In this document: positions 10,105 through 28,230 of the stretch, piece by piece
Layout of the letters: every line of letters begins with the position of its first letter
Numbering within the stretch: the stretch's first letter is position 1
Sequence record: PZ379074.1
Strand: one strand, 5' to 3'
Origin: a phage
Length of the DNA stretch: 64,000 nt
Made by a program: the position numbers and the translations under genes
The notes under the pieces: model-generated
What the model was told of the DNA's origin: nothing
Seen by the model: the letters and a program-made list of their open reading frames with translations, nothing else
Databases searched by the model: none

Positions 10105-10439
10105 TGAATAAACGAACACCGTTTACGTGTTTTGAAGAATGGAATGTGTACAATGGGTCGCTTTATGCGGCCTTTTGTTGTTTGGGTCGTGTTTTGCGAT
10201 GGAATAATTATGAGGTTGTGTTTTATTTATTAATTGTGCGGAAATATTTAGAAATATATTTCATAGGTCGTGTCTATTGGTCCGTGGTGTTTGTTAGGAC
10301 TTATCTATGGATTGAAATTTTAGTGTCGTGAAACGTGGTGTTTGAACACATTTGATACGCGTAAAATACGGCTAAAAATTAAGCGTATCATGGCTGCAGG
10401 CCGCGCCGTTACTGAGTTCCTATTTTCAAAAGTGGTACA

Positions 10440-10800
10440 CCCTTACGGATGATACGTCATGGTTTTTTATCCGTATCAGTGTACAGCCCTTGCCGCGCCT
10501 GGCCTGTACATTAATCTTACGGATGATACGGATAAAACTGGGCACCATTATATATATAATTTGAAAAATTAATTAACTCCATTTTAAAAACATTTAAATT
10601 ATTTTTTTCATATCCTCATACTTATGTTAATTTATATATTTAACGTATCATCCGTAAGATATAAGTAAAAACAAAGACTTGCGGCAATACGGATGATACG
10701 TTATGATACGCTTCGACCAGCCAGCAGCGGCTAAGTCATTGATTTGCATAACAAGCAGCGAAAGGGATGGATTTCTTTTATCCGTATCAAACAGTACACC
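10440..10800. repeat. iteron-like repeat cluster, 13-bp motif TACGGATGATACG / CGTATCATCCGTA, flanking an AT-rich tract
   Basis: Full copies at 10444-10456, 10518-10530, 10688-10700 (+) and 10644-10656 (rc), plus partial copies; AT-rich tract 10545-10640. Confidence 0.7.
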
Positions 10801-10939
10801 ACGCACCACGGTCCGTTATCCATTCAGCACTATGATTTGTGTACGTTTATAGCCATAATGAACATCAATCTGCACTTGAATATAATGTCCATCCATTGTA
10901 TAATTCACACTATTAATTTGCACTATGGGATTTTGCACT

Positions 10940-11413
10940 ATGAGTCAAGATTATGTAGCGATGCCTGAAGACTTTGAAGACCCGCGATTTGCAGAGCACA
11001 ATCAGGCTTTATTCGATGAGTTCATTGACCTTGTTATTCAGGGCCATGACATGCGCGCAGCTTTTGCACTAGTATTTGGAATGGAAGTTGCAACGGATAA
11101 CTACACTGGCCAGCGAATCCTTTGCGCGCAACGCAATCCATACTACAAGATGCGCTTCAAAAAGCGTATGGAAGAGATGCCACTCAAGGATTTGTGGAGC
11201 GTAAAAGGTGCAATTCACAATTTGGTCAAGCTTGTGCGTGATCCAGAAGTCGCGGCGTCAGCCAAACTTAATGCTATTCGTGAACTGAATATCATCTACG
11301 GCATCACGATGATTGATGAAAACGGCAATAGTAAAATGGGCCGTTCCATGGACGATTTCTACAAGGATTTTGGAGAGGCGGCCAAAGAAGGTGAGCAATT
11401 CTCCCGCCACTAG
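10940..11413 (+). CDS. hypothetical protein (157 aa); speculative small-terminase/DNA-binding candidate
   Basis: ORF flanked on both sides by the ATTTGCACTAT array; alternative start ATG 10925; no motif recognised. Confidence 0.5.
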   Translation: MSQDYVAMPEDFEDPRFAEHNQALFDEFIDLVIQGHDMRAAFALVFGMEVATDNYTGQRILCAQRNPYYKMRFKKRMEEMPLKDLWSVKGAIHNLVKLVRDPEVAASAKLNAIRELNIIYGITMIDENGNSKMGRSMDDFYKDFGEAAKEGEQFSRH

Positions 11414-11432
11414 CCAATTTGCACTATAAAAC

Positions 11433-11466
11433 GGCCCTAGAACACATTTTCTCCACTTCTAGGGCC
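11433..11466 (+). other. hairpin downstream of 10940..11413 (weak terminator candidate)
   Basis: GGCCCTAGAA ... TTCTAGGGCC 10-bp inverted repeat with 14-nt loop; no U-tract. Confidence 0.3.
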
Positions 11467-11841
11467 ATCGGTAATACGACGGGGAAGGTTACAACCATAA
11501 ACGCGTTATAAAGTGTATTATTATAAGTCATCTTTTAGTCACTTTCCGTAACAATTTACGACCTTCAACCGTCCAATCGAACGACTCCACCAGCAGATTT
11601 GCACTATAACCTAAGACTACCCGACCTTTCTCGTTATCGACCCGCCAGCAAGTCTCGAATAGCATCTTATTTGCACTATTAACTATCGCCGCAACTCGCG
11701 TAGGATAAGCGCAATTTGCACTATGGTCATAAAGGGATAAGGTGCGACCACTTCCGATGGACAACGTAGCGATGAGAATGAGCGTATTCATAAGCCACCA
11801 ATTTGCACTATGAAAAGCGACCCCGAAGGGCCGCCATTCTA

Positions 11842-12468
11842 TTAGATAATCTGGAAGGTGTAGGACTTGTTGCCGAACTCAAAGTTCAAGCGCCCAGCTT
11901 CCTTAAGCTTCATGCGGAAGCGAATGTGTTTGCTATCCGGCAAGCCCAGCGCGGCGAACGCTACGCGGACCGATTTGAACTCGCCTACACCCTCGACCAT
12001 GACACCGTTACGGGTGAGACGCTTTTGCGCCACTTCCTTATTATCCCAGCTTTTTGCAATACCTTCGCTATTCGAACGGCGATGGGAAGGAGTTCCATTT
12101 TGCACTACGCAATTTGCACTATCGTTTAAACCGCTCTTAACGAAGGCTTCATATTCTTCGTCGGTCATCGCGTCGAGTTCTTCCTGGGTCGGCTCAGCCT
12201 TTTTAACGACCGCACGCGCCTTATGCGTTTTTACATCGCTGGACACTTCCTCGCGCGGCTTCGCGTCGGGAATGGGCGATTCGTTGGACGGCTCATCGAG
12301 CGCGTTTAAGGACTCGATTAACGCGATTACGCGAGTCTCGGCGGTCCGGCGGTCCGCGAATTTCTTAATCGGCTTCGAACCGGAATTTGCATTATAAAAT
12401 GCAACGAGGTCGGCGGTCTTAGTTGCGATAACGTCGCCGCTAGTAGAAAAGCGATTTAAGCTAACCAT
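11842..12468 (-). CDS. hypothetical protein (208 aa); member of TTATTATG-start module
   Basis: Same RBS context AGGAGTTTATTATGG as 12549..12863; 3' third overlaps the ATTTGCACTAT repeats. Confidence 0.45.
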   Translation of the reverse strand: MVSLNRFSTSGDVIATKTADLVAFYNANSGSKPIKKFADRRTAETRVIALIESLNALDEPSNESPIPDAKPREEVSSDVKTHKARAVVKKAEPTQEELDAMTDEEYEAFVKSGLNDSANCVVQNGTPSHRRSNSEGIAKSWDNKEVAQKRLTRNGVMVEGVGEFKSVRVAFAALGLPDSKHIRFRMKLKEAGRLNFEFGNKSYTFQII

Positions 12469-12548
12469 AATAAACTCCTATTTGTTAGGGCGCTAGGCGC
12501 GAAAGAATTTTATTAAAGCGCCGCGCACGACGCTCTAAAAATCCTCTC

Positions 12549-12863
12549 TTACTCTTCGTCGTCTTCGATTAATTCGAGGGCGAAGGCGTAAGCTTTGCTA
12601 TCGTAATTAACTAAAACGGCGAGTTCGAACTCGTTAATAAACGCCGTTTTACCGCATAAATTTAATTCCGCATCGACTTCGAAGAATCCGTTTTCGTCGC
12701 GCTCTAAGCGAGAAGCAGCGAGTTGCTCGATTACCGTCGCGTCGTTAATTTCTTCGCCTAAGCGAACGCCGGAGAATTTAGCGAGAATTTCGCCGTAAGT
12801 AAGCGTAACGCCCTGGACTTCGGCGGTTGCGTTTTCGAGGGTAAAGCGGGTAACGATAGCCAT
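12549..12863 (-). CDS. small highly acidic protein (104 aa)
   Basis: Preceded by sigma70-like promoter, conserved 5'UTR hairpin and AGGAGTTTATTATG start context; ends ...LELIEDDEE. Confidence 0.6.
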   Translation of the reverse strand: MAIVTRFTLENATAEVQGVTLTYGEILAKFSGVRLGEEINDATVIEQLAASRLERDENGFFEVDAELNLCGKTAFINEFELAVLVNYDSKAYAFALELIEDDEE

Positions 12864-12931
12864 AATAAACTCCTAGTTGGGAGAGGCGTTAACGACCTAT
12901 TCGTTAACTCATCCCGTCCCGATATGAGTAC

Positions 12932-12959
12932 ATTATAATATAGTGTAGAAAAAAGTAAA
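12932..12959 (-). promoter_or_regulatory. sigma70-like promoter (TTTACT-16-TATAAT) for 12863<-12549
   Basis: Reverse complement reads cTTTACT(16 nt)TATAAT; whole cassette near-identical to 13403-13430. Confidence 0.55.
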
Positions 12960-13003
12960 GCACTTTTTCGATAAAAATGCGATAAATTATTTTATCTTTT
13001 TTC

Positions 13004-13031
13004 TTTACTTCTTCGTACACTCGCGTATACT
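13004..13031 (+). promoter_or_regulatory. sigma70-like promoter (TTTACT-16-TATACT) for 13088..13390
   Basis: cTTTACTtcttcgtacactcgcgTATACT, back-to-back with divergent promoter at 12932-12959. Confidence 0.55.
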
Positions 13032-13087
13032 TGTTTATATCGAGACGGGCGATGTCCCTTTCTTCTACTAGCATCGGGAGCTTTATT

Positions 13088-13390
13088 ATGACTACTTTAA
13101 TCTCTTCCATCCTTACTTACGACGAAGACCGCTTAACCGTTCGCTCTCTTATCGCCGCCGTTAACGCGGAACTAGAATCTAGCGCCATTAAGGTCCGCGC
13201 GGTCGCCTTCATCGGCCTTTCCTTCGACGATATGAAGTATGCCGAACGTAGCGCTATCCGCTTCGCGAAGACCGACGACGAAGCCGTTACCCTTATCGAG
13301 ACGGTTACGCCGCGCGACGAAGCGTTAATTATCGTCGAGTATATCGACGTAGAAGGCGATAAGGCTTATAAATATTTTATCGCAGAATAA
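13088..13390 (+). CDS. small acidic protein (100 aa)
   Basis: Start set at ATG 13088 within GGGAGCTTTATTATG context (track ORF 13031..13390 starts earlier). Confidence 0.55.
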   Translation: MTTLISSILTYDEDRLTVRSLIAAVNAELESSAIKVRAVAFIGLSFDDMKYAERSAIRFAKTDDEAVTLIETVTPRDEALIIVEYIDVEGDKAYKYFIAE

Positions 13391-13402
13391 CGAAAAAGTG
13401 CT

Positions 13403-13430
13403 TTACTTCTTCGTACACTAAGACTATAAT
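13403..13430 (+). promoter_or_regulatory. sigma70-like promoter (TTTACT-16-TATAAT) for 13498..13788
   Basis: gtgcTTTACTtcttcgtacactaagacTATAATg; followed by hairpin GGTAGCGA-atagg-TCGCTACC and AGGAGATTATTATG. Confidence 0.55.
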
Positions 13431-13497
13431 GTTTTATATCGAGAGGGGATGAGGTAGCGAATAGGTCGCTACCCTCCCGACCAACTAGGAGATTATT

Positions 13498-13788
13498 ATG
13501 ATTACTTTAGCCGCTATCCGTAACGCTCGCGCCGAAACTTCCGAAAACTCTAACGTATTTGGCGAAAAACTTAAAAACGTTTATCTCTTTAACGTAGATG
13601 CGACTATCGAGGAGCTTCATAGTCCTATCGATTTTAGCGAATTTACGGAACTCGAAGAGGAAGATATTTCTACTTTCCGCGTTACTATCGAAGGCAAGGT
13701 TTATTTTGCTACGGAGTTCGGCGGCGAATATCTCGCGGTATCCGAAGGCGAAGGCCGTTACTCTTTCTTTAAAATCGTCTCCTTATAA
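13498..13788 (+). CDS. small acidic protein (96 aa)
   Basis: Own promoter cassette; followed by terminator. Confidence 0.6.
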   Translation: MITLAAIRNARAETSENSNVFGEKLKNVYLFNVDATIEELHSPIDFSEFTELEEEDISTFRVTIEGKVYFATEFGGEYLAVSEGEGRYSFFKIVSL

Positions 13789-13807
13789 TACCCTTCCGTT
13801 ACTAATA

Positions 13808-13833
13808 GGCCGCGCTTAGTCGCGGCTTTTCTT
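13808..13833 (+). terminator. rho-independent terminator
   Basis: GCCGCG-cttagt-CGCGGC followed by TTTTCTT, 20 nt after stop of 13498..13788. Confidence 0.55.
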
Positions 13834-14096
13834 CGTCCCTATCCCGATGCGCGTCTACGCGAAAACTCCTTTATCCTTCCCTTCGTCGTCGCATAATCTT
13901 CTTCGAGATGCTCCTTAGTTCGCATAACAGGTATTACGTTAAATGGAGAACATCGCGTAAGTCCTTGTTTTATATAGACACCTATATCGGACCGTTAGGG
14001 CGGGTCGCGTAAGTCGTTGTTTTATAAAGGCGCAAAACTTTCCCTTCGTTCCGAACTAAAACGAGGAATATGCCGACCCTTCGTCCGAAAATAGTA

Positions 14097-14470
14097 TGCA
14101 TGCGAAATTACATGCATCTAGAATAATCCCCACCGATATTATCCTACACGCAATCATTCGCTTTCGAATCATTATGCTTCATATTATTATGCATCGAATC
14201 ATTCTCTTTCGAATTGTAACGCTGGAAACTGTAACGGCGATTGATTATTGCGTTCGTGTGGTTTTTAGGGCATGGGTCTTTTGGTGCGTTTTGCTACTTG
14301 ATGAAATTTGCGGTACACTAATCAAAATACGACACATTTGGTCCACTAACTTTTCAAAGAAAAAGTCCTAGACAGTACCGTACTATTTTGCACCCACAGG
14401 AAATTTGCAGTACACTCCTGCGCGGCAGGCAAAATAAAGGGCCGCACTAAGCGACCCACTAAGCGACCCA
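14097..14470. repeat. non-coding repeat-rich region (short direct and inverted repeats)
   Basis: ATGCATG...CATGCAT inverted repeat near 14097; AATCATTC(G/T)CTTTCGAAT direct repeats near 14149 and 14201; (G/C)AGTACACT motifs near 14303 and 14400; tandem CACTAAGCGACCCA x2 at about 14445-14472. Confidence 0.5.
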
Positions 14471-14499
14471 CGATTCACGGTTAAAGCAACATCCACCCA

Positions 14500-14880
14500 C
14501 TATTCACTCTTATGGGCATCACCAAAGCCATCCGCAATCTGGCTGATCAATGATTCAATGGACACAGTTTTACCAATTGATCGAGCGGTAATAGCAAGCA
14601 TATTATCAATCAAACCACGATTGACTGCATATGTTCCAGGTTTTGACTCATCTTCAGAACAACCAAAAAGCTGGTCGCGCAGACTTTCAAGAGAACGCTC
14701 AATATTTTCCAACTTCTCTTCTAAATCGGATTGGCGACGTAAAACCCATGTCAAGTCACGGTTGCCAACTTCCAATCCATCAGAATAGCAAGGTGGAGCG
14801 TCAATTTTGATGCTGGAACCAAAAGCAATGCCGCTGCCTTTAGTATGTGTGTGGCTCATAGAATCATTTTTATTTGACAT
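14500..14880 (-). CDS. hypothetical protein (126 aa)
   Basis: Start set at internal ATG (MSNKND...) with AAAGG RBS; track ORF extends to 14946. Confidence 0.45.
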   Translation of the reverse strand: MSNKNDSMSHTHTKGSGIAFGSSIKIDAPPCYSDGLEVGNRDLTWVLRRQSDLEEKLENIERSLESLRDQLFGCSEDESKPGTYAVNRGLIDNMLAITARSIGKTVSIESLISQIADGFGDAHKSE

Positions 14881-14977
14881 ATCATTACCTTTAATATTTG
14901 GGTGATTAATAATAACTATAATAAAGCCGCATGGCGCGCCATTCAAATCGGTTTATTAATTGTAACGATTGGATTCA

Positions 14978-15172
14978 TCAATCGATACCAACTGAGCCGA
15001 TGTGCTGAAAGAATTCTGAATAAACTTCCTTCCAGTACTTGCGCGCAGCTTTCTGGGCTTGCCCTTTGCGCTTGTAGCTTTTACCTTGGAAAATGAAACG
15101 GTCGTTTGCTGCGTTATACTCCACCACACCTTCCAGCCATTGTAAGAATGCTACTGATTCATTTTTATTCAT
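14978..15172 (-). CDS. hypothetical protein (64 aa)
   Basis: ORF in minus-strand block. Confidence 0.4.
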   Translation of the reverse strand: MNKNESVAFLQWLEGVVEYNAANDRFIFQGKSYKRKGQAQKAARKYWKEVYSEFFQHIGSVGID

Positions 15173-15179
15173 GTTAACC

Positions 15180-15575
15180 TCAATATTTTAATAAGAAAGT
15201 ACCCAACCAACTTTCCTCAATCTCGCGGCCAGTAGCCACACGGTCGGTCTTGGCTATGGGTCTGGATTCGCCGCAGGGCAATCCGTCTTGTAGTTGTGTA
15301 CTATTGCCAATTCTCACCAGAACCTTTCCATCAGGGTCGATATAAGCGCGACAACCCATGATTTCGAGTCGTTGTAGACACTGGCGAATCGTTTTCAGCT
15401 TCTCACCGGACCGGATAGAGCGCGGTCGCGACCGCTGACCGTTTTTATTCACTGTACGCTTGAAAACCGGAATATCATTGGTGCGTTGCGGCTTGGGTCG
15501 GTAATAAGCCTCTTCGCCAGGAGTTGCACCTGGTGTCAGTTCGCGCTTAAGCGCCTTTTCAATATCAATGATCAT
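15180..15575 (-). CDS. hypothetical basic protein (131 aa)
   Basis: Start set at internal ATG (MIIDIEK...); track ORF extends to 15647 with Cys-rich leader. Confidence 0.4.
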   Translation of the reverse strand: MIIDIEKALKRELTPGATPGEEAYYRPKPQRTNDIPVFKRTVNKNGQRSRPRSIRSGEKLKTIRQCLQRLEIMGCRAYIDPDGKVLVRIGNSTQLQDGLPCGESRPIAKTDRVATGREIEESWLGTFLLKY

Positions 15576-15668
15576 AATTATGCTGCAGCAGCGTGAATGA
15601 TTGCATAAACAATTCCTAACATGGCGACAACACAAACCGTGCCCCAAAATGCAAAACGTCGTGATTCT

Positions 15669-15956
15669 TTATCCATTGGACCCTTCTCCACTGTTGATAT
15701 TATCCGAAATCAAAGTCGGAATTTCATCTTGAGTCCTTACCTTGTAGTGCGAAGGCATCTTACTTTCCAACAATGCCTGTTCAGCTTCGCCTTTTGTTTC
15801 AAACAAAGGAATGCACCAATCAACTGCATTTCCTTGCTCGTCGCCATTAACAGCTTTCAAGAATACAAGACGCTTGTCTGCAGGGTCGATGCCGCAAATT
15901 AAGTATTTAGGCAGCGCCTTTGCTTTTTGGGCCTTATCAATATCTTCAAATTTCAT
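15669..15956 (-). CDS. hypothetical protein (95 aa)
   Basis: ORF immediately downstream of tail fiber gene, same strand. Confidence 0.45.
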   Translation of the reverse strand: MKFEDIDKAQKAKALPKYLICGIDPADKRLVFLKAVNGDEQGNAVDWCIPLFETKGEAEQALLESKMPSHYKVRTQDEIPTLISDNINSGEGSNG

Positions 15957-16037
15957 AAATCACCTCACTTGTTAACGTATAATGAGTATAACTTAATATC
16001 GCATAAAGTAAAGGCGCTTTTCAGCGCCTTGAGTGAA

Positions 16038-25330: not shown

Positions 25331-26251
25331 ATGACGATACCAATCAGCACGTTTCCTCTATCTGGACAAACGCCAGTATTGCCTGCTGTATATGCTAACG
25401 GTTTGGCGATTGTTTCGGAATTCACATCCGATAAAAACCTGATTGTTCCATTGAGTCCGCCATTGGCGTCTGGATACAATTCAGTTGGCCAGTTCTTTAT
25501 GATCGGTAATGATGGCGATTCTACCAGCAAGCCGAATCTGACACTTTCAGTTCCCAAAATGAACATAACAGACGTGCAGACTGGTTTAACTGCATCTACG
25601 ATCACCATCGCTTTTGGAGAAGCAGTGATTATAGGCATGGAGTCTGGAGGGTCCAAGAATGCTGTCGCCGTTAAGGTAGTCAAATCCAGCAGCAACCAAT
25701 ACACACTACCAGCGGCAACGGCTTCTGTTCTTGGCGGCGTCAAAATAGGAAGTGGCATAAGCGTTGCAGGTGACGGTACAATTAGTGTGACTCAATACTC
25801 ATTACCGATTGCATCAGCATCAACCTTGGGTGGCATAAAGGTAGGAACGACACTATCAATTGATGGTTCTGGCGTCCTTAATGCTGCTGCAAGCACTGTG
25901 CAGAACGCAAGCAACAGCGTAAGCAATCCTCCGACAACTCTGGTGAATCTGGCAGCCTTAAACCTGCCTGCAGGGAAATGGCTTGTGACAGCAAGTCAGT
26001 TGACTGTCGCGACAGCAGGAGTTCAAGCGAATACCGGAATTACAGTCAAACTGTCAACAAGTAATTCAGATATTACGGATGATGCATTTACAATGTCAGC
26101 TGGCATTCGGGCTGCAGGTCGTTTCGGCGGCAATATCCCAACAAAGATAATTACTCTTGCCGCGCCTGGCAACGTGTATCTAAACTATCAATGCACAGAC
26201 GCATTGACATCTACCGTTTACGGACAGATCACCGCAATTAAGTTGAACTAA
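25331..26251 (+). CDS. fiber-like repeat protein (306 aa)
   Basis: Internal tandem repeats ASVLGGVKIGSGISVAGDGTISV / ASTLGGIKVGTTLSIDGSGVLNA; Ser/Thr/Gly/Ala-rich. Confidence 0.5.
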   Translation: MTIPISTFPLSGQTPVLPAVYANGLAIVSEFTSDKNLIVPLSPPLASGYNSVGQFFMIGNDGDSTSKPNLTLSVPKMNITDVQTGLTASTITIAFGEAVIIGMESGGSKNAVAVKVVKSSSNQYTLPAATASVLGGVKIGSGISVAGDGTISVTQYSLPIASASTLGGIKVGTTLSIDGSGVLNAAASTVQNASNSVSNPPTTLVNLAALNLPAGKWLVTASQLTVATAGVQANTGITVKLSTSNSDITDDAFTMSAGIRAAGRFGGNIPTKIITLAAPGNVYLNYQCTDALTSTVYGQITAIKLN

Positions 26252-26261
26252 AGAGGAAGTT

Positions 26262-26399
26262 ATGCAAAAGATTATTCAGTCACGTTACGTTAAAGTGCGA
26301 AATATTAATTGCAACTCTTTGCTTTCTTGGAAATGGGCTGTTTACGACTCGATGCTGATTGGCGTTTTAGTTGCTGGAGTGCTTTTTAATATTCACTGA
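26262..26399 (+). CDS. small membrane protein (45 aa)
   Basis: Not in track; AAGAGGAAG RBS 4 nt upstream of ATG; C-terminal hydrophobic segment. Confidence 0.4.
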   Translation: MQKIIQSRYVKVRNINCNSLLSWKWAVYDSMLIGVLVAGVLFNIH

Positions 26400-26439
26400 A
26401 TCGCCTGGCAATGGATTGCCGCAGGATTTTACGCGTATA

Positions 26440-26705
26440 ATGACGTATCATCCGTATCAAGTAAGTAGTTGTTTTCAAAAGAATCTTACGGATGATACGG
26501 ATGATACGCGTTGCCGCGATACTTTATAAGAGTTTATAAAAAAATAAAATTATATATCTAATTTAATTTTATTTTTTTATAAACTCTTATATATGAAAAG
26601 TATCCGTATCATCCGTATCATCCGTAGCACACCAGTGATAGCGCGGCTTATACACCGATACGGATAAAAATACACCTCATTTTATCCGTATCATCCGTAT
26701 CACAC
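26440..26705. repeat. iteron-like repeat cluster (TACGGATGATACG / CGTATCATCCGTA, tandem 9-mers) flanking a palindromic AT-rich element
   Basis: Copies at about 26444-26456, 26487-26507 (tandem), 26605-26627 (tandem), 26686-26700; same motif as 10440-10800. Confidence 0.7.
26526..26590. repeat. perfect 26-bp inverted repeat with 13-bp spacer, AT-rich
   Basis: ATAAGAGTTTATAAAAAAATAAAATT (26526-26551) exactly complementary to AATTTTATTTTTTTATAAACTCTTAT (26565-26590). Confidence 0.85.
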
Positions 26706-26811: not shown

Positions 26812-28230
26812 ATGCGAATGCAAACGGCACGCGAAATTGACAAAAATGGATTCTTGACGATTGTGGGTTGTCCCATTTCGTCATTTGGCATTTTTGATTA
26901 TTCTGCAGGTCAGGTTGGACTTGATGGTGATCCGAATCGCATCGTAAAAGTTTATCGCCCAGAGTCAGCGGTGAAAGACCCCGAAGCGATAGATTCATTC
27001 AAAAATATCCCTTTCATCGACAATCACGAAATGCTTTCTGGATTCGAAGGTGATGAGGATAACACAGCACCCGAAGAGTATGGCGTTGATGGCGTTCTAA
27101 CTGGCAATGTTTATTATGACAAGCCATGGATGCGCGGCGACCTTAAAGTTTTTAGCCGTCGTCTGAAGAAAGCCATCGATTCTGGAAAGGTTGACTTGTC
27201 TTTGGGCTATGACTGTGAATTCATCATACAGTCTGGAGAGTTTGACGGGCAGCCGTATGAAGTGGTACAGACAACTCTTCGCGGCAACCACATTGCTCTC
27301 GTGGACGTTGGTCGAGTACCAGGTGCACGGGTGCTGGATGGTCGTTGCTTTGACCATCTTTGTTTGACGACTGTAACACCATCCAACGAGGATTTAGACA
27401 TGCCAAAACCGTTAAAAGGTAAAGCGCGTGATAATGCTGTTGAACAGCTGAAATCACTGATCCCTGCGCTCGAACAATTTCTGAATGAAGAGAGCACCGA
27501 AGCTGCTCATCAGGACGAAGTTGAAGTGAAAGCAGAAGAGAAGGATTCAACCGAAGAACGTGAAGAAGTGATGGTTGATCCAGAAGTTAAAGCAGAAGCT
27601 GAAGAGACTCCAGAAGGTGAAGAGAAGTTTGAAGTTGAAACTGAATCTCACGCTGGCGGCGAGCTTCCGCAACTGATCAGCCAAATCGAAGCACTTATTG
27701 CAAAACTGAAAGGTGGCGCGGTAGGTGATGAAGAAGAAGTTGAAGCCGAAGTCAAAGACGAAGAAGTTGAAGTCAAGGCTGAAGATGTATCACCTTGCGA
27801 CAAAGCTGAAGATGTGGTTAGCGGCCTGCAAAACAGCAACGTAAAGGGGGCTTCGGTCGAAAAAGATGACAAACCGACAAAAGCGGCGAAAGCGTCGCCA
27901 GGTCCAGCAAAAGGGGAACACTCAATGGCATCTGATTCAGCAGTTGCTGCTTTCTACGCTGATTCTGCTCGTAAGAATAGCCTCTACCAGCGCCTGTCTA
28001 AAGTTGTTGGTGCCTTTGATCATGCAACTATGGACTCCAAGTCCGTAGCGAAATATGGCGCTAAAAAGTTAGGCTTGAAGTGCGTTGATGGTGCTGAGTT
28101 TGACGTGGTGGATAATTATCTGCGCGGCGTTGAACACGGTCAAAAACAGCGTGTAGTCGCAAAACAAAAGGCCGCTGCGGATTCTGCAGCAACTGACGAA
28201 GCATTTGAAGCTTGGTTGAAAGGGGAATAA
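26812..28230 (+). CDS. prohead protease/scaffolding-like protein (acidic coiled-coil middle region)
   Basis: 472 aa; Glu/Lys/Val-rich acidic repeat region; position between portal/MuF and capsid. Confidence 0.5.
   Translation: MRMQTAREIDKNGFLTIVGCPISSFGIFDYSAGQVGLDGDPNRIVKVYRPESAVKDPEAIDSFKNIPFIDNHEMLSGFEGDEDNTAPEEYGVDGVLTGNVYYDKPWMRGDLKVFSRRLKKAIDSGKVDLSLGYDCEFIIQSGEFDGQPYEVVQTTLRGNHIALVDVGRVPGARVLDGRCFDHLCLTTVTPSNEDLDMPKPLKGKARDNAVEQLKSLIPALEQFLNEESTEAAHQDEVEVKAEEKDSTEEREEVMVDPEVKAEAEETPEGEEKFEVETESHAGGELPQLISQIEALIAKLKGGAVGDEEEVEAEVKDEEVEVKAEDVSPCDKAEDVVSGLQNSNVKGASVEKDDKPTKAAKASPGPAKGEHSMASDSAVAAFYADSARKNSLYQRLSKVVGAFDHATMDSKSVAKYGAKKLGLKCVDGAEFDVVDNYLRGVEHGQKQRVVAKQKAAADSAATDEAFEAWLKGE

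Follow-up and report, generated by a model that had tools for sequence, protein, structure and literature searches.

In phages T7 and T3, the concatemer junction carries a terminal repeat flanked by arrays of short repeats and by packaging signals. To our knowledge, the cis signal that defines the genome end is undefined for any phage with long terminal repeats. In phage T5, the inner end of the direct terminal repeat (DTR), which bears early genes, is occupied by a large untranslated and repeat-rich region (Repeat Region 3/iss) of 1.2-1.7 kb, which overruns the boundary into unique DNA by 270 bp and is more conserved than the neighbouring genes (10.1101/866236). The mechanism making long DTRs is described as unknown in PMC6454146, which cites Casjens and Gilcrease 2009. 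A DTR of ~3.7 kb has been reported for Wifcevirus (PMC6563267), with 3,673 bp in phage Mansfield (PMC6753283) and 3,533 bp in phage Ro157lw (PMC6454146). These phages are distantly related to Pbunavirus (PB1-like) phages of Pseudomonas (PMC11990801), and at least one of them, vB_Eco4M-7, can be rebuilt from PCR fragments (PMC11074155). In the publications on vB_Eco4M-7, WFC/WFH, Mansfield, Ro157lw and BASEL, the non-coding region studied here is not discussed and transcript data are absent.

The window, that is, the whole stretch of 64 kb of DNA analysed, comes from a Wifcevirus (E. coli myophage with a genome of ~68 kb). The region and its flanks matched 29 GenBank phage records at 88-96% identity, all of them Wifcevirus (E. 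coli and Shigella myophages of 66-72 kb), and no phage match to the region or its flanks was obtained outside Wifcevirus, even by sensitive blastn. The same kind of search gave no match to the region in E. coli genomes, so that it is not host-derived. The gene-free interval extends over 711 bp (13789-14499), and two genes converge on it, a 96-aa gene at 13498..13788 on the plus strand and a gene at 14500..14880 on the minus strand, with their 3' ends, and not their starts, facing the interval. On the basis of sequence comparison we consider, with a probability of about 0.6, that the region is a terminator-closed, gene-free spacer between convergent units that contains the inner boundary of the DTR. 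Most likely, it is a DNA-level site for making genome ends, and not an RNA gene or an origin of replication. The same locus is found at 88-96% identity in other Wifcevirus phages (Mansfield MK903282, WFH MK373776, SP13 OP352608 and Ro157lw MH051335), with the same flanking genes and terminators and an identical junction (GGGTCTTT/TGGTGCG, the slash marking the repeat boundary), which in Mansfield is already annotated as the DTR boundary. In comparison with these relatives, the present phage has two terminator-stem units, its ATGCATG palindrome is intact, and a spurious 91-aa ORF is opened by an ATG. The kind of feature, a DTR inner boundary with convergent terminators, is already known; what is new, judging from its identity of at most 96% to any record, is the isolate.

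No informative annotation was found in Pfam or PHROGs for seven neighbouring proteins; the proteins encoded in the repeat had no Pfam hits, and their PHROG matches were to families of unknown function. In six relatives (F13, Eco4M-7, ECML-117, FEC19, SP13 and Ro157lw), an extra 69-aa gene inserted at ~13790 separates the 96-aa gene from the non-coding region (778-987 in record L016, 3191-3400 in L006 and 2825-3034 in L008, and also present in L018, L022 and L023). This gene is annotated as 'transcriptional regulator' in F13, and the 96-aa gene is ~79-80% identical to that of the window in the five of these six relatives in which it aligned.

The DTR is present in the window as a single collapsed copy of ~3.7 kb at 10581..14281. 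Both copies are deposited in the WFC, WFH, SP13 and Ro157lw records, with 0 mismatches between copies, while the Mansfield record holds one copy with a PhageTerm-derived repeat annotation; PhageTerm was used for the ends of Mansfield (PMC6753283) and Ro157lw (PMC6454146). The left genome end (AACTCC/ATTTT) is common to the five relatives with determined ends, save for an offset of 1 nt in the left junction of SP13 relative to the other four, and it corresponds to the junction 10580/10581 of the window (AATTAACTCC/ATTTTAAAAAC). By homology to these relatives, the right (inner) boundary of the DTR, which would be the right physical end of virion DNA, is placed inside the non-coding region at 14281/14282, the junction being identical in WFH, SP13, Ro157lw, Mansfield and the window. 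The spacer is split by this boundary into 445-490 bp inside the DTR and ~218 bp in unique DNA, and the last ~60 nt of the DTR (14223..14281), terminating in GGGCATGGGTCTTT, are highly conserved. The WFC record is an outlier, as its DTR ends 81 nt further right at 14362/14363 (CAAAGAAA/AAGTCC), and in view of this discrepancy the right end may be imprecise or strain-dependent. Either the end was determined imprecisely in WFC or the cut site has really moved; WFC and Bas99 carry the change G14270A, 11 nt from the majority junction. An earlier, sequence-only reading of this DNA had rightly singled out the region, but it had missed the DTR inner boundary inside it.

The base composition of the window independently supports the boundary mapped by homology. 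A CpG-rich island extends from ~12100 to ~14260, with observed/expected values of 2.0-2.9 against a genome mean of 1.12 ± 0.26; the ratio falls to ~1 after ~14260, and the island stops ~20 nt before 14281/14282. In the right half of the DTR, this island takes in non-coding DNA as well as genes of either strand, and the codon junctions of the acidic proteins (GAC/G) account for part of its CpG richness, not for that of its non-coding part. Comparison of the left-end with the right-end flanks revealed no common motif (28 shared 8-mers vs a null of 24 ± 8).

Both sides of the interval are closed by intrinsic terminators. The terminator of the 96-aa gene lies at 13807..13828 on the plus strand (AGGCCGCG-CTTAGT-CGCGGCTT followed by TTCTTCG), with a stem of 8 pairs, 6 of them G-C; it is invariant in 20/20 genomes and is annotated as a terminator in WFC, WFH and Mansfield. 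The terminator of the gene at 14500..14880 reads on the minus strand from 14457 to 14439 (feature 14439..14470; GGGTCGC-TTAGT-GCGGCCC followed by TTTATTTT) and is annotated as such in WFC and WFH; as read from the sequence, its stem contains a G-U wobble on the minus strand that becomes a C-A mismatch on the plus strand. At both sites a G+C-rich stem-loop and a T-run follow a stop codon and are conserved, the stems being kept in 20 genomes with variation in the loop and in copy number. A tandem repeat had been claimed here from the sequence and is indeed present, yet the tandem CTAAGCGACCCA at 14447 and 14459 is merely the duplicated 5' stem arm of the minus-strand terminator, which had gone unrecognised. 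The copy number of the tandem CACTAAGCGACCCA is 1 in most genomes, 2 in this phage and higher in Mansfield. In the proposed mechanism, these terminators would keep early transcription of the DTR from reaching the opposing operon or from continuing past the end of the right-hand repeat.

The conservation of the interval was determined from an alignment of 20 genomes. Nucleotide diversity (pi) was 0.049 over the region and ranged from 0.055 to 0.137 in the five neighbouring genes that were measured; the spacer is more conserved than four of these genes and about level with the fifth (0.055). Block A (13829..14095), which is CpG-rich, lies inside the DTR and contains the D3 repeat pair described below, showed a pi of 0.035 with 85% invariant columns. 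The segment 14096-14222, with a palindrome and a 45-nt duplication, reached 0.082, and the block containing the boundary and both D2 repeats (14223-14438, block C) 0.031, with 0.011 for its part 14223-14262. In this alignment the blocks 13829-14095 and 14223-14438 show purifying selection, and a DNA-level function of the region is likely because it is both non-coding and conserved. Selection acts on the D3 pair and on the sequence flanking the boundary to its left and right. Of the four features that had been flagged by eye, three (the palindrome, the AATCATTC duplication and the tandem repeat) are the least conserved, and such eye-catching features are mostly dispensable since the conservation lies in other blocks.

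Regarding coding potential, the interval was confirmed as non-coding: an ORF at 14096..14371 exists, as had been noted, and it does not make a convincing gene. This 91-aa ORF starts with ACG, not ATG, in 19/20 genomes and is intact in 1/20, and its variation by codon position (29/30/15) is concentrated at positions 1 and 2; it was rejected as a protein-coding gene, being not intact across relatives and showing no synonymous excess. None of eight candidate ORFs examined in the 20 genomes looked coding, the small ORFs had no excess of third-position changes, and the substitution patterns of the seven ORFs smaller than 14096..14371 were not coding-like; mini-ORFs other than 14096..14371 showed 3-9 synonymous vs 7-34 non-synonymous changes, and six-frame reading revealed no hidden long frame. 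Nothing is annotated in the interval in the curated BASEL records, and the mini-ORFs placed there by other GenBank records are mutually inconsistent.

The description of the region as repeat-rich was borne out, its content of repeated 8-10-mers ranking ~17-21 among 634 equal-sized windows of the 64 kb (top 3%). The highest ranks went to windows overlapping ~26000-26700 and 10200-10500, and at k=9 one that begins at 12901 also came near the top. The pair of TCGCGTAAGTCNTTGTTTTATA repeats at 13953 and 14005 is, by alignment, the best-conserved repeat of the region, and it had been missed in the sequence-only reading. Its two members, D3a (TCGCGTAAGTCCTTGTTTTATATAG, 13953..13977, plus strand) and D3b (TCGCGTAAGTCGTTGTTTTATAAAG, 14005..14029, plus strand), are both near-invariant in 20 genomes and are spaced by 52 nt (~5 helical turns), and 2 copies were reached in 0/100 shuffles. 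A second pair, D2, flanks the alternative WFC boundary. D2a (TTTTGC..GAAATTTGCGGTACACT, 14289..14319, plus strand) starts 8 nt outside the DTR boundary, and D2b (TTTTGC..GAAATTTGCAGTACACT, 14386..14416, plus strand) follows 97 nt after it. The GTACACT pair that had been reported is present at 14313 and 14410, the core in D2a being invariant across 20 genomes, but the form given for it, (G/C)AGTACACT, was inexact, as the copies read GCGGTACACT and GCAGTACACT. The true repeat is longer than had been noted, with the 17-nt GAAATTTGCRGTACACT at 14303 and 14400; 3 matches to GAAATTTGCRGTACACT were observed, a count reached in 0/100 shuffles. Further copies of D1 (the 45-nt duplication), D2 and D3 were not found in the 64 kb at up to 3 mismatches, save for one 3-mismatch match at chance level. 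A scan of IMG/VR with the D3 and D2 patterns recovered both copies in Wifcevirus contigs only; single matches elsewhere look like chance, and no more distant relatives were gained.

The GTACACT core also occurs, as had been stated, in nearby promoter spacers, at 13015 and 13413 in two promoters. These promoters are part of a set of three paralogous strong sigma-70 cassettes, at 13004-13031 (+), 13402-13430 (+) and 12959-12932 (-), which drive small genes of the DTR and follow the pattern GCTTTACTT(C/T)TT(C/T)(G/C)TACACT-N-TATA(A/C)T...ATATCG(A/G)GA. The cassettes at 13004 and 13402 read GCTTTACTTCTTCGTACACT...TATAAT...ATATCGAGA with GTACACT in the spacer, and the minus-strand cassette at 12959 has CTACACT in its place. 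The sequence TGTTTTATA lies at the start site of P13402 and is otherwise present only in the two D3 repeats, and D3 may derive from a promoter cassette through loss of the -10 hexamer. D2 and D3 were rejected as sigma-70 promoters, as an acceptable -10 hexamer was absent both by eye and by scan. The proposal of a regulatory hub found no backing, since the flanking genes end here and the conserved parts lack a credible sigma-70 promoter.

The likeness of D3 to an early promoter cassette without its -10 hexamer bears on the alternative that the region consists of decaying remnants of genes or promoter cassettes at a module junction, where only the terminators would be functional and the conservation would reflect a young genus. 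The CpG-rich composition of 13829-14260, similar to that of the adjacent acidic-protein genes, and the tolerance of indels (the 69-aa gene at ~13790 in six relatives, the 45-bp deletion in Bas100 and the variable tandem copy number) are consistent with such decay. We consider this alternative unlikely, as conservation in blocks A and C exceeds that of every neighbouring coding gene measured and is about level with that of a working promoter region (pi 0.029), a pattern not expected from neutral decay.

The central, variable segment contains the palindrome and the duplication D1. The ATGCATG/CATGCAT inverted repeat that had been described was confirmed, with ATGCATG at 14096 and CATGCAT at 14111 forming an 8-bp hairpin over 14096-14117 (ATGCATGCGAAATTACATGCAT, 14096..14117). 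This palindrome is restricted to this phage and a few others, is broken in most relatives and is not conserved: the change T14097C is found in 19/20 genomes, and the right arm has CGA instead of ATG in about half. D1 (14136..14223, plus strand) is the most variable part of the region and holds the duplicated AATCATTC(G/T)CTTTCGAAT, verified at 14152 and 14197; its 43-nt unit recurs with a 45-nt period (14136-14178 and 14181-14223, 74% identity), and at least 2 matches to AATCATTCKCTTTCGAAT were reached in 4/100 shuffles with 3 mismatches allowed. Phage Bas100 (L011) lacks exactly one 45-bp D1 unit (window 14152-14196), so that D1 is, on this comparison, dispensable; it probably arises and collapses via unequal recombination. 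Under the proposed mechanism, the palindrome, the 45-nt duplication and the duplication of the terminator stem would all be evolutionary noise from slippage or unequal recombination and not functional parts.

This variable segment is also where the signals for a transcript of the region are found. A region that is conserved and non-coding could encode a small ncRNA or a transcript with an antisense or cis-regulatory role, and weak promoter-like sites occur on the minus strand inside D1 (14167..14138 and 14212..14183), together with a hairpin followed by a T-run at 14117-14096. However, these D1 sites and the hairpin lie in the least conserved part, the hairpin is broken in about half of the relatives, and no sigma-70 match reaching 9/12 was found in blocks A and C. 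The Rfam scan that had been suggested along with the proposal of an ncRNA locus returned nothing over 12500-16000 at E up to 1, and ARAGORN detected no tRNA or tmRNA in the whole window. RNA folding was evaluated in sliding 100-nt windows on both strands against dinucleotide shuffles; z-scores in the conserved blocks ranged roughly from -1.7 to +1.8, and values of about -2 or below corresponded to the minus-strand terminator, to the non-conserved palindrome (both strands) and to the variable D1 repeats. Variation among relatives was too low for covariation to be used in the assessment of RNA structure. With no Rfam match, no internal promoter-plus-terminator pair and unremarkable folding, the ncRNA proposal did not hold, and we judge an RNA gene at this site to be quite unlikely.

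An origin of replication had been put forward as well, and its direct repeats and the moderately AT-rich stretch at 14100-14220 would suit such a site, as would the position of the DTR near the peak of cumulative GC skew (~10-11 kb), a position confounded with gene orientation. The region contains no consensus DnaA box (TTWTNCACA; 1 one-mismatch site vs 1.25 expected), no IHF core was found in the scan, and an iteron array of at least 3 copies is absent, the direct repeats being present in two copies only. Moreover, the AT-rich repeated part is the most variable one and is partly deleted in Bas100, GC skew tracks gene orientation, and stronger GGATGATACG iteron/AT-rich arrays are found at 10440-10700 and 26440-26700. 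The origin proposal was discarded on these grounds, and we regard it as highly improbable. The sequence GGATGATACG is limited in the 64 kb to these two clusters, each with inverted CTTACGGATGATACGG / CGTATCATCCGTAAG arms around an AT-rich spacer of ~110 nt, and alignment of one locus with the other gave 72% column identity. The AT-rich spacer of the first cluster contains the left genome end 10580/10581, and the second cluster is upstream of a DUF2213 head gene (26812..28230). These clusters could be sites for a regulator, for terminase or for an origin, and as iteron/AT-rich origin candidates they are much better than the region itself.

The closest architectural parallel, T5 Repeat Region 3, raises the alternative of an injection-pause or hold region acting in cis during DNA entry. 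Such a region would either halt or delay transfer once the early genes of the repeat are inside the cell, or attach to a protein of the host or the phage at the membrane. Like its T5 counterpart, the region is large, non-coding and repeat-rich, lies for the most part within the repeat, overruns the boundary into unique DNA (by ~218 bp here) and is better conserved than the adjacent genes; strong sigma-70 promoters in front of the small DTR genes are what would be expected of first-expressed genes. In contrast with T5, the region measures 0.7 kb, is much less repetitive and shows neither sequence homology nor large inverted repeats nor DnaA boxes, of which T5-like phages have 7-8 in an ordered arrangement. 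No sequence similarity was found to phages outside Wifcevirus, and no A1/A2-like genes were found in the DTR with Pfam and PHROGs. Two-step injection is a T5 trait that has never been reported for Wifcevirus, and the very short infection cycle reported for two Wifcevirus isolates (PMC11990801) leaves little room for two-step transfer. Because the paired DnaA boxes of the T5 iss are absent and homology is lacking, the resemblance is a lead rather than a classification, and an injection role as the main function of the region seems improbable.

For the preferred interpretation, a spacer that contains the DTR inner boundary and serves in the making of genome ends, the link with packaging is supported by a TerS homologue encoded inside the DTR. 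The 162-aa ORF at 10925..11413 (+), which starts 344 nt from the left genome end, is a clear homologue of TerS of the Pbunavirus E217 (PDB 7UXE, E 6e-34). Pfam gave no hit for this ORF, PHROGs assigned it to a family of unknown function, its product is labelled hypothetical in most GenBank relatives, and the single-sequence AlphaFold model of the protein was poor (pLDDT 48.5) and was set aside, the homology to E217 TerS being sufficient. DNA binding by E217 TerS in vitro was not appreciable (PMC9611059), so that recognition of D2 or D3 by TerS is not a given.

According to the mechanism we propose, concatemers would contain the DTR once between genomes, and since their junctions hold one copy, cutting at both boundaries together with duplication would be needed. 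The packaging machinery, of which the TerS homologue would be part, would cut or nick at 10580/10581 and 14281/14282 and copy the DNA between, and this duplication would give each packaged genome a DTR at both ends. The scheme resembles that of T7 and T3 in that the ends are fixed in sequence, the repeat would be duplicated during packaging and short repeats lie beside the boundaries; it differs in that the T7 repeat is 160 bp long and non-coding, whereas the one described here is 3.7 kb long and full of genes.

The near-invariant sequence to either side of 14281/14282, which takes in the GAAATTTGCRGTACACT pair immediately outside, would be the best candidate for the right-end cis signal, and the GAAATTTGCRGTACACT pair sits in the densest GTAC cluster of an otherwise GTAC-avoiding genome. 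With a low probability, the 14223-14281 block and the two GAAATTTGCRGTACACT repeats may be the cis signal that marks the end of the long DTR to the packaging machinery, and the D3 pair may contribute to such an end signal. In a variant of this reading, the region may, by analogy, also hold entering DNA as the T5 iss does, without DnaA boxes. D2 and D3 are named putative signal elements from their conservation, which could serve functions other than end formation. GTAC is rare genome-wide (122 observed vs ~247 expected), its densest 150-nt window being 14311-14460 (4 sites), immediately outside the right DTR boundary; 3 sites, in a five-way tie for the next densest window, are found at 10431-10580, immediately outside the left end. 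As a recognition feature common to both boundaries, the GTAC clusters are suggestive in this genome; the left cluster falls in a stretch replaced in WFH, and they are kept as a weak lead only.

In practical terms, the interval should be annotated with its terminators and the repeat boundary, the mini-ORFs that several GenBank records place in it are probably spurious, and circularly permuted assemblies of such phages should be opened at 10581. Wifcevirus combines a short repeat (3.7 kb), a precisely mapped, conserved and gene-free inner boundary, a TerS homologue inside the DTR and, in at least one member, a genome that can be rebuilt from PCR fragments, and on account of this combination the locus would be a workable place to seek the cis signals of end formation. 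A strongly conserved, gene-free boundary zone in a phage that can be rebuilt in vitro could help to find out what sets the limits of long terminal repeats.
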